Notes under the pieces: model-generated | The model's input: the letters and a program-made list of their open reading frames with translations, nothing else | Databases searched by the model: none | What the model was told of the DNA's origin: nothing | Part shown: positions 57,101 through 60,100 of the stretch, piece by piece | Numbering within the stretch: the stretch's first letter is position 1 | Layout: each line of letters starts with the position of its first letter | Origin: Eledone cirrhosa | Lineage: Eukaryota | Direction of reading: 5' to 3' | Assembly (NCBI GenBank): GCA_964016885.1 | Contig: OZ024763.1 | Coordinates: 5,828,001 to 5,892,000 of the forward strand | Length of the DNA stretch: 64,000 nt | Translations under genes and position numbers: made by a program

Positions 57101-60100
57101 TCCCAATTGAACCCGGAATAAACATATATGTGTGTGTGTGTGTGTGTGTGTGTGTGAAAAATTAAGCAGTTTTTAACTGAAAAGCTGCAACAGTCACAAC
57201 AACAATAATGAGAAGAATATGTTTACCTTTCAGTAGCCATGTTAATGTTGCCCCTAATACTGTAGCCTGCTCGTTGCCAACACCGATTCCTTTTAGTACA
57301 GAATGTGTTGCTAATGTACTAGTAACACTACTGGCAAAAGCCTGGATAAATGAGAAATATAGGTGTTAGTTGAGTACAGACTCTGTCACTAATGTACCAG
57401 TGATATGCTGGTAAATACCTGGACAAATGAGAAATATAGGTGATAGTTGAGTACAGACTATGTCACTAATGTACCAGTGATATGCTGGTAAATACCTGGA
57501 CAAATGAGAAATATAGGTAATAGTTGAGTACAGACTCTGTCACTAATGTACCAGTGATATGCTGGTAAATACCTGGACAAATGAGAAATATAGGTAATAG
57601 TTGAGTACAGACTATGTCACTAATGTACCAGTGATATGCTGGTAAATACCTGGACAAATGAGAAATATTTTATAGTTTAGTACACACAGCCTCTTCCTGC
57701 TATATCAAGAGTTAACCTGATATATCCCTTCCATATACTGTACCGATTGTGTTGTTATTTCTGTTTACCTTACATATATATATATATATATAGTAATAAT
57801 AATAAATTTGAAGACTAAAATCCAAAGAGGGCTCGATAAGGATAAATATATAAGAACCATAAGCAAATATTTATTAAAATAACAGATTAAAATCTGTTAT
57901 TTTAATAAATAATTAATATATATATATATATATATGTAAAACTTCTATTTAAATTGTTGGGATACAACAAGCAAATATTTTTATAACTGATATAAAGCAC
58001 TCTACAAATATTTGGAGTAAAAATACGATATTAACAAATGGAAACTATATTTATAAAACCATATTTATTTCATTATACATATTTCAAGGACACCAAGTTA
58101 AATTATGGTGTGCTTTCATCAGATAAAATATAATATAGAGCAGTTTTATAAATAAATATTGACATACCCTTAAAGAATGCAACCATTACTGTTGGAAGCT
58201 CCCAGATAGTATATATATATATATATATATATATATATATATATATATTGAAAACAAAGCATTAAGGTTTCACCTTAAGGTCTTTATTGATTATACAGAG
58301 CTACAACTGTTTCACAGATGGATGGCTCAGGATCTATATTAATGCTATATACCACAAATCTACTGAACCCCCTTAGACAACTCTGTACTTCTCATGTGTA
58401 TATATACATACATCCATCTGTAGAAACCAAGCCAGAAACCTTATTGACATATTACAATTGTTTCAATATCGATCAGCTCAGGGTACAATCAAGATGCCAG
58501 GACCCGACTCCTTTTCAATATCTCATCAGGTATGTGAGCTATGTGCAAAGGTACATCTAGACCTCATAACAGCACTGAGTGTTTTGAACAGCATGTTGCT
58601 TGTAATTGTAGTTACACACCTAACTAACATAAACACACACGCACACACATATATATATATCATCATCACCGTTTTATGTCCATTTTTCCATTCTTGCATG
58701 GGTTAGACGGGTAGTCCATGTTGGGAGACAAGTTGGCCAGATTTGGCCATGTTGTATCTTGCTCTGACGGGACTGTATATTTCGCTGGGATTTTTACAGC
58801 TGGATGACCTTCCTAACACCAATATATGAATAATATATATATATGGAGGCACATGGCTTAGTGGTTAGAACATTGGCCTTGCAATCGAAAGGTGATTCAA
58901 TTCTCAGACCGGGTGATGTGTTGTTTCCTTGAGCAAGATACTTTATTTCACATTGCTCCAGTTTACTCAGCTGTAGAAATGAGATGATAGGGACTGGGGT
59001 CCCTATCATTCTACTGCAAAGTGGTCGTGGAGGTGCCATGGCAAAAAAGCACCCAGCATTCACTGTAAATGAGGTTGGTGTTAGGAAGGGCATCCAGCTG
59101 TAGAAATCAAGCCAGAATCAGTTCCCGTCCCACCTTTGCAAGCAGGGAAAAGCGGACGTAAAATGAAATGAAATGATGAATGAAATGAATATATAATGTG
59201 TACATGTTTAAATTATAACCTTTGAAAAACGATTGAACCTCACAACATCCCATCTCTCTTTCTCTCAGCCTTCATGCCTGTCTGAATAATAATAAAACAA
59301 AACACAGTAGCTACAGTACTTTTATTACTGGTTTATCTTGTGGTGAAATGTTGTCAGCAAGTGCTCCAGCATGGTCGCAGTCTAACGACAAGAACCAGTA
59401 TAGGTATGTGAATGGGTGTTGTAACTTACCTGTACGCCGTCCCATATCTGGTAGTTAAGGTAGTCTTCACTAACACTCTCCGGGTAGCCCTGGGGTAGAA
59501 ATACATTCTGAAACAAGAGAGGAAACTTTAAACTTTAGTTCTAAGAGAGAAATGGTGAGAGAGAAAAAAATTGTCTACACCACTACATGCATCTACTTCT
59601 TCTTGGTCCACTCATTCCTGAGAAGGTCGTGGGGACAGGGTCCTCATACAGGCTTTCTGGGGGGGGGGGGGGGCTGTTAGAAGCAACTGTCTCCAAAATC
59701 TCCCGAATCGTAGGGACGCCGTATTGACATAGGGCGGGCGTTTCTTGGGCATTTTAAACCTGGCGTAGCCGATCCCTCTTCAGACCTAAGTCCAGCAGAT
59801 TTCTTCCAGAGAGAGGTATAATCAACCCCAGTACTAGACTGGCACGTTTTTTTATCGACCGAGAAAGGATGAAAGGAAGAATTGCCCTCGGCAGGATTTG
59901 AACTCAGACAGCAGAGAGCCTGAGCTAATACCATAAAACATTCTATGTGACGTTCTAACGACTCTGCCATTTCGTCGCTAGGTAAGTTTCTGACTCCGTT
60001 AATTCATTTTGATACACACATATATATATATATATATATATATATATATATATATATATATATATGTGTGTGTGTGTGTGTGTGTGTGTGTGTGTGTGTG

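Follow-up and report, generated by a model that had tools for sequence, protein, structure and literature searches.

Hammerhead ribozymes in the pseudo-LTRs (pLTRs) of Penelope-like elements (PLEs) are the closest described systems to the motif studied here. In the account of Cervera and De la Peña (2014; PMC4209133), metazoan PLE hammerheads form families with covariations and compensatory changes, have a long helix II and a palindromic helix III, are predicted to act as dimers, and occur mostly as single truncated copies or as opposite-strand pairs 100-700 bp apart. In the experiments described there, single minimal hammerheads gave no cleavage in vitro, and dimers cleaved weakly. The Hydra clade of C-terminal EN+ PLEs was described by Craig et al. 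(2021; PMC8557442) as having an RT followed by a C-terminal endonuclease, the motifs DKT and RW(K/R), a CxCx5C linker, and CxxC and CxH towards the end; in that description, the elements target (TA)n, and the hammerhead in their pLTR has a tiny stem III and often a non-G-C closing pair. The hammerheads listed in that paper include one from octopus, and Hydra-1_Obim is among the elements covered. Another PLE hammerhead, from an anole, was reported to cut only with the element's protein, and its cutting was dispensable for insertion in vitro (PMC11167929). In addition, conserved intronic hammerheads of amniotes have been proposed to act in mRNA biogenesis (PMC7229834), and a 2026 preprint reported that tandem retrozymes are excluded from introns (10.64898/2026.07.22.740005).

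A 64,000-nt stretch of the Eledone cirrhosa genome (the window; contig OZ024763.1, positions 5,828,001 to 5,892,000) contains six matches to the core pattern CTGATGA..GAAA, against 1.05 expected and with six reached in 0 of 100 shuffles, and five of the six belong to one Penelope-like hammerhead family. Two of its members, at 58082-58122 (the 58-kb copy) and 7592-7632 (the 7.6-kb copy), both on the minus strand, had been singled out in a sequence-only reading as differing by two compensatory base-pair changes in stem II around an unchanged core, and both motif sequences bear this out. Pair 2 is A-U at 58114:58087 in the 58-kb copy and G-C at 7624:7597 in the 7.6-kb copy, while pair 6 is C-G at 58110:58091 and U-A at 7620:7601, respectively; the two changed pairs are separated by a C·C mismatch (58112:58089), and the catalytic core is identical in both copies. 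The 58-kb hammerhead sits in a 5'-truncated copy of about 275 bp (57936..58210, minus strand, ends approximate), which consists of the 3' pLTR and tail of a PLE with (TA)n on both sides, and self-BLAST agrees with the earlier statement that it has no inverted arm. The 7.6-kb copy (7592..7632, minus strand), of the G-C/U-A class, is the short arm of an inverted insertion whose long, tailed arm is at 8008..8048 on the plus strand. As set out below, we consider it highly probable that the 58-kb motif is a type I hammerhead ending a 5'-truncated copy of an abundant PLE, and that its paired changes, shared by thousands of copies, were fixed stepwise in active source elements under selection that kept stem II.

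Judged from its letters, the 58-kb motif reads as a complete type I hammerhead with a palindromic stem III and an AUA site: the core CUGANGA ... GAAA and an NUH site (AUA) are arranged around three helices, with helix I open. On the minus strand, the 5' strand of stem I (58123..58137; 8 bp, one bulged base and 6 bp, with further extension predicted) is followed by core positions C3-A9 (CUGAUGA; 58116..58122) and by stem II (58086..58115), which has 3 bp beginning with the closing A-U pair (58115:58086), the C·C mismatch, 6 bp and a 10-nt loop. The segment 58075..58085 (minus strand) holds G12-A14 of the GAAA and the 8 nt of stem III (58075-58082), whose self-complementarity is predicted to let two copies pair, and then come the predicted cleavage triplet AUA (58073..58076, minus strand; by hammerhead numbering, the predicted cut lies between 58074 and 58073) and the 3' strand (58060..58073, minus strand), which forms stem I with the sequence ahead of the core. 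Stem I is predicted to have at least 14 bp, unlike the helix I of 4-5 bp given in PMC4209133.

The folding predictions point to a two-copy form. In the predicted monomer, the formation of stem III costs about 2.9 kcal/mol (-8.5 vs -11.4), while the predicted dimer reaches -28.6 kcal/mol vs -17.0 for two monomers with stem III, and this two-copy active form is near the co-fold minimum (-29.0). Folding z-scores were modest, between -1.6 and -2.4, and a value of -2.1 was obtained for the opposite strand of the 58-kb copy as well. For pairing statistics, 64 of 91 copies were aligned, with each insertion represented by about one arm, and gave 55 distinct rows. In 54 of these 55 rows, two copies could pair at the centre of stem III (UA 27, UG 25, CG 2, arising from few events only), which fits the dimer model. 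A canonical tertiary-stabilised hammerhead, which needs a G10.1-C11.1 closing pair and a stable monomeric helix III, does not agree with the predicted cost of stem III in the monomer or with the closing pair, which is A-U in 45 of the 55 distinct rows. PMC4209133 instead gives a G10.1-C11.1 pair after an extra base, a register that fits one Eledone subfamily only. In the usual register, the closing pair of that subfamily is A·C (5 of 49 rows), and the alternative register gives G-C. Copies with stem II ending in CCCC were seen at L017, L018, L035, L038, L042 and L069 and at 52416-52457 of the window; in the usual register they have a closing A·C, and a one-base slip gives an extra base plus G10.1-C11.1, as in the published minimal-hammerhead consensus. 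Several subfamilies also carry distal stem II mismatches. An Rfam scan of the window (E ≤ 1) gave no hammerhead family among 104 matches.

The element that carries this hammerhead is highly abundant. Exact matches to a 31-nt pattern drawn from stem III and stem I number 34,432 in the genome (3.0 Gb), with 0 for the control. Twelve regions were picked because their arms are widely spaced or because they share long 5' flanks. In 10 of them, pieces of an ORF for an RT plus C-terminal endonuclease lie on the same strand as the hammerhead, upstream of it and mostly at a distance of 1.4-2.2 kb, and the same linkage was found in five of seven similarly selected regions bearing the 58-kb variant. At L155, a hammerhead - ORF - hammerhead direct repeat has a unit of 4,136 bp and carries the 58-kb variant in each of its two pLTRs, and L162 has the same arrangement for the G-C class with a unit of 4,034 bp; at these two loci and L070, the hammerhead lies in the pLTR of an RT + GIY-YIG element. 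Insertion into (TA)n was observed for the family. The protein motifs DKT, RWR, CxCx5C, CxxC and CxH, and no CCHH, were read by eye in the translations of L064, L066, L069, L070 and L072. Pfam returned 0 families for three ORFs of the element, a PDB sequence search gave a single match (E 2.2) that is not meaningful, and the ESM Atlas clusters RT, HTH_animal and GIY-YIG for the element protein serve as leads only.

These features suggest a PLE with Hydra-clade motifs, a clade assignment that rests on the motifs. As described for the Hydra clade in PMC8557442, the Eledone element has an RT and then a C-terminal endonuclease with DKT, an RW(K/R)-type motif, the CxCx5C linker, and CxxC and CxH near the end; its RWR in place of RWK is shared with Hydra-1_Crog. 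The (TA)n targets, the pLTR hammerhead with a tiny stem III and a closing pair other than G-C, and the inverted 5'-truncated arms with a one-sided tail are also like those of the Hydra clade (PMC8557442). The long helix II, the palindromic helix III, the predicted dimer action, and the occurrence mostly as single truncated copies or opposite-strand pairs 100-700 bp apart agree with the account of metazoan pLTR hammerheads in PMC4209133. Unlike the Hydra elements, which are given in PMC8557442 as generally <3 kb (a descriptive, not diagnostic, length), the Eledone unit is about 4.1 kb, and AT-rich sequence of 1.4-1.7 kb follows its ORF; in L063-L071 this is a T-rich non-coding stretch running from the ORF end to the 3' pLTR, longer than in published Hydra elements. 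The hammerhead sequence also differs from the six Hydra hammerheads listed in PMC8557442, and the near-fixed C·C in stem II and the even-length palindromic stem III set it apart from the Hydra hammerheads described there. Compensatory changes in PLE hammerhead families have been in print since 2014; sequence, length and the C·C mismatch distinguish the Eledone family. A literature search did not find this family described; subscription papers and Repbase/Dfam were outside the search, so the family may already be catalogued.

A non-LTR retrozyme, which would form non-coding tandem repeats of 170-400 nt with canonical hammerheads, does not agree with copies that are dispersed, 5'-truncated, often inverted and ORF-linked. 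The long similarities between loci downstream of the tail are (TA)n tracts, and an ORF beside L051 belongs to a neighbouring element, being beyond the (TA)n end.

The 35-nt core plus stem II variant of the 58-kb copy has 3,560 exact occurrences genome-wide, and the paired changes are therefore not specific to the 58-kb locus. Stem II states were counted in 10,901 matches to a pattern with the four pair positions free and a 10-nt loop. At pair 2, G·U accounts for 1,847 matches (17%) and A·C for 60 (0.6%), the G·U class being 31 times larger; at pair 6, C-G accounts for 4,478, C·A for 204 (1.9%) and U·G for 169. The A·C and C·A counts are of the size expected from post-insertion decay at the 2-6% within-class flank distance, and the G·U class at pair 2 is a subfamily. 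That C·A copies slightly outnumber U·G copies at pair 6 counts against the reading favoured here; the U·G class may contain a small intermediate subfamily, and one loop variant is common to about 38 of the first 100 listed U·G copies vs about 4 of the first 100 listed C-G copies (hand count).

To order the changes, a tree was computed on the flanks alone of 49 tailed copies, which were taken from loci L001-L074 and the window. The core, stem II and most of stem III did not enter it, nor did loci that had been chosen by stem II content. The tree shows a ladder of A-U/C-G (58-kb type), A-U/U-A, G·U/U-A and G-C/U-A (7.6-kb type), with several starred branches, and the more divergent subfamilies mostly have A-U at pair 2. 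Moreover, the G-C class has the smallest within-class distance, with a median of 0.019 (17 copies) vs 0.056, 0.057 and 0.037 for the other classes (18, 12 and 8 copies). Given the ladder, the A-U state of divergent subfamilies and the low distance within the G-C class, the 58-kb copy probably keeps the older state, on a root placed by midpoint only. The sequence-only reading had the changes run from G-C to A-U and from U-A to C-G; the midpoint-rooted tree and the within-class divergence suggest the reverse, so that pair 2 probably went from A-U through G·U to G-C and pair 6 from C-G to U-A. In this order, the two changes would have arisen in separate steps, with pair 2 passing through the G·U subfamily. 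The family offers a clean, high-copy case in which a retrotransposon ribozyme evolved by compensatory steps (A-U, G·U, G-C).

Stepwise change through intermediate classes also bears on whether the pairs could have changed together, by template-switch correction or conversion in a DNA hairpin and with no selection. Stem II is indeed a DNA inverted repeat and the element frequently inserts as inverted pairs, but copying across both changed pairs would repair the C·C mismatch between them, which is retained in 49 of the 55 distinct rows across otherwise divergent subfamilies. Furthermore, the two changes lie on different branches with the A-U/U-A and G·U/U-A classes between them, and G·T is not made by exact complementary copying, yet 1,847 copies have it. 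Since the mismatch was kept, the changes fall on different branches and one of them went via G·U, hairpin correction is extremely unlikely and is largely refuted by the intermediate classes. The near-fixed C·C mismatch may have a functional role of its own.

The pairing of the family is consistent with selection on the fold. In the 55 distinct rows, 91.7% of stem cells pair, pair 2 is paired in all 55 and pair 6 in 53. Two-sided change is seen in 62 cells vs 23.7 in shuffles, but in only seven pairs vs 4.8, a number reached by 29 of 500 shuffles. The closing A·C of one subfamily, the distal mismatches of several, the modest folding z-scores and the negative Rfam and Pfam results also count against the reading favoured here. 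The 49-copy tree has only 1-3 changes on each side of pairs 2, 5 and 6, and the two changed pairs have 1-2 independent events each, so that single copies do not amount to independent evidence. Because independent events are so few, per-pair covariation was not significant in tree-based independent-pair tests on the 49 copies, where significance is out of reach (for pair 6, two independent pairs, sign test p 0.5). The same scarcity of events would suit neutral drift in a few source elements, with a chance pattern amplified by copy number; the main subfamily-level states, however, are all paired at stem II pairs 2, 5 and 6, and from G-C, one and the same transition in an identical CCT context leads to G·U or to A·C, and only G·U founded a large class.

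The catalytic core adds a further line of evidence. N7 is the one free position of the hammerhead core. Across the distinct rows, the core is invariant but for N7 (and C3 in 2 of 55), and on the flank-only tree of 49 copies N7 changes at least eight times and C3 twice, while U4, G5, A6, G8 and A9 never change, a count somewhat biased by a copy filter that permitted one core mismatch only. Core conservation with only N7 free adds support to RNA-level selection in the source elements, and the contrast between five of seven 5' core positions that never change and eight changes at N7 speaks against drift, which is very unlikely as the explanation. Selection on RNA structure, as the sequence-only reading proposed, is thus supported for the mobile source elements that gave rise to the subfamilies, but not for the 58-kb copy itself, which is one of 3,560 exact copies of its variant. 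As hammerhead cutting was dispensable for insertion in vitro in the anole PLE (PMC11167929), the fold rather than cutting may be the selected trait, by analogy with that one element. These results add support to the view that PLE hammerheads are under selection.

Under the favoured reading of fixation in source elements, the two hammerheads of a full element (pLTR-ORF-pLTR, about 4.1 kb) would pair via the self-complementary stem III, possibly assisted by the element's protein, and the paired hammerheads would cleave the transcript close to where the unit ends. Those source elements in which the fold was retained would then have spread as subfamilies, probably as A-U/C-G first, followed by A-U/U-A, G·U/U-A and G-C/U-A. 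The intronic 58-kb copy would likely be a passive insertion into (TA)n.

The location of the 58-kb copy raises the question of a role for the host gene. As had been stated, the copy lies on the sense strand of RUSF1 and in an intron: matches to PF04884 on the minus strand place one exon upstream (59430..59507) and one downstream (57227..57341), with the intron at 57342-59429, which would be intron 2 on the vertebrate exon layout. The first coding exon of RUSF1 was not identified in 59560-64000 or in the next 9.9 kb. Two further sense-strand copies lie in other RUSF1 introns, namely 52416..52457 (minus strand, of the N7 = A subfamily) and 49317..49357 (minus strand), which forms an inverted pair with 49510-49550 on the plus strand.

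A host role, in which the 58-kb copy alone or paired with another sense copy cuts the RUSF1 pre-mRNA and is kept for that purpose, could draw on the sense orientation with an intact core and site, on the two further sense copies, and on a 58-kb/49-kb heterodimer predicted at -27.0 kcal/mol. It is nonetheless very unlikely. Stem II is identical in 3,559 other copies, so that nothing about the locus is needed to explain the paired changes; in the tests described in PMC4209133, cleavage was not seen for single minimal PLE hammerheads, and the anole hammerhead required the element's protein (PMC11167929). The sense copies are 5.7 and 8.8 kb away in different introns, and splicing would usually separate them. 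Like the amniote hammerheads of PMC7229834, the 58-kb copy is intronic and on the sense strand, but those are described as few, highly conserved and single-copy, whereas the Eledone copy is a recent transposon insertion with thousands of identical counterparts and shows no sign of conservation at its locus. Because its monomer stem III is predicted to be unstable and two more sense copies lie in RUSF1 introns, nothing singles out the 58-kb copy. A role in RUSF1 is thus unsupported; the motif behaves as expected of a known class, and nothing is shown on RUSF1 regulation.

In four unlabelled runs over 57200-59600, contigs were dominated by repeat copies and no ends were seen. In run X4, a contig of 1,411 nt matches the window over 57227-57340 alone, and the non-repeat intron bins are empty; this contig could be spliced RNA, but the type of run is unrecorded and no exon-exon joint is listed. 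More generally, sense copies of a dimer-dependent hammerhead in different introns of one gene, such as the three in RUSF1, might pair on the nascent transcript and cut it, which we consider a long shot. If this were true, long genes would face a copy-number-dependent brake formed by tens of thousands of transposon ends, and the subfamily ladder would also provide a dated series in which the effect of G·U steps on cutting could be tested.

Other repeats of the window were also noted. The segment 23966-24125 (hammerhead core 24052-24079, plus strand) is an inverted-pair element unrelated to the first; its short stem III is like that of published Hydra hammerheads, and a remnant matching the element is present at about 61599-61653. 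Another high-copy repeat (57686-57900), which contains a small palindrome and, on the plus strand, a degenerate stretch similar to a hammerhead, directly abuts the 3' (TA)n of the 58-kb copy, and the two elements appear to stack in one (TA)n tract. At L154:3454 (minus strand), a different hammerhead family with the same palindromic stem III lies beside a copy of the 58-kb type, and cross-family dimers are possible in principle. Near-perfect DNA palindromes of 100-160 bp at 26611-26770, 40211-40308, 54190-54374 and 8388-8500, which gave spurious miRNA matches in the Rfam scan, are probably other short inverted insertions. As well, two equal-scoring partial tRNA-like matches at 19800-19857 and 22252-22309 (minus strand; 28.1 vs the 29-bit Rfam cut-off) are possibly SINE heads.
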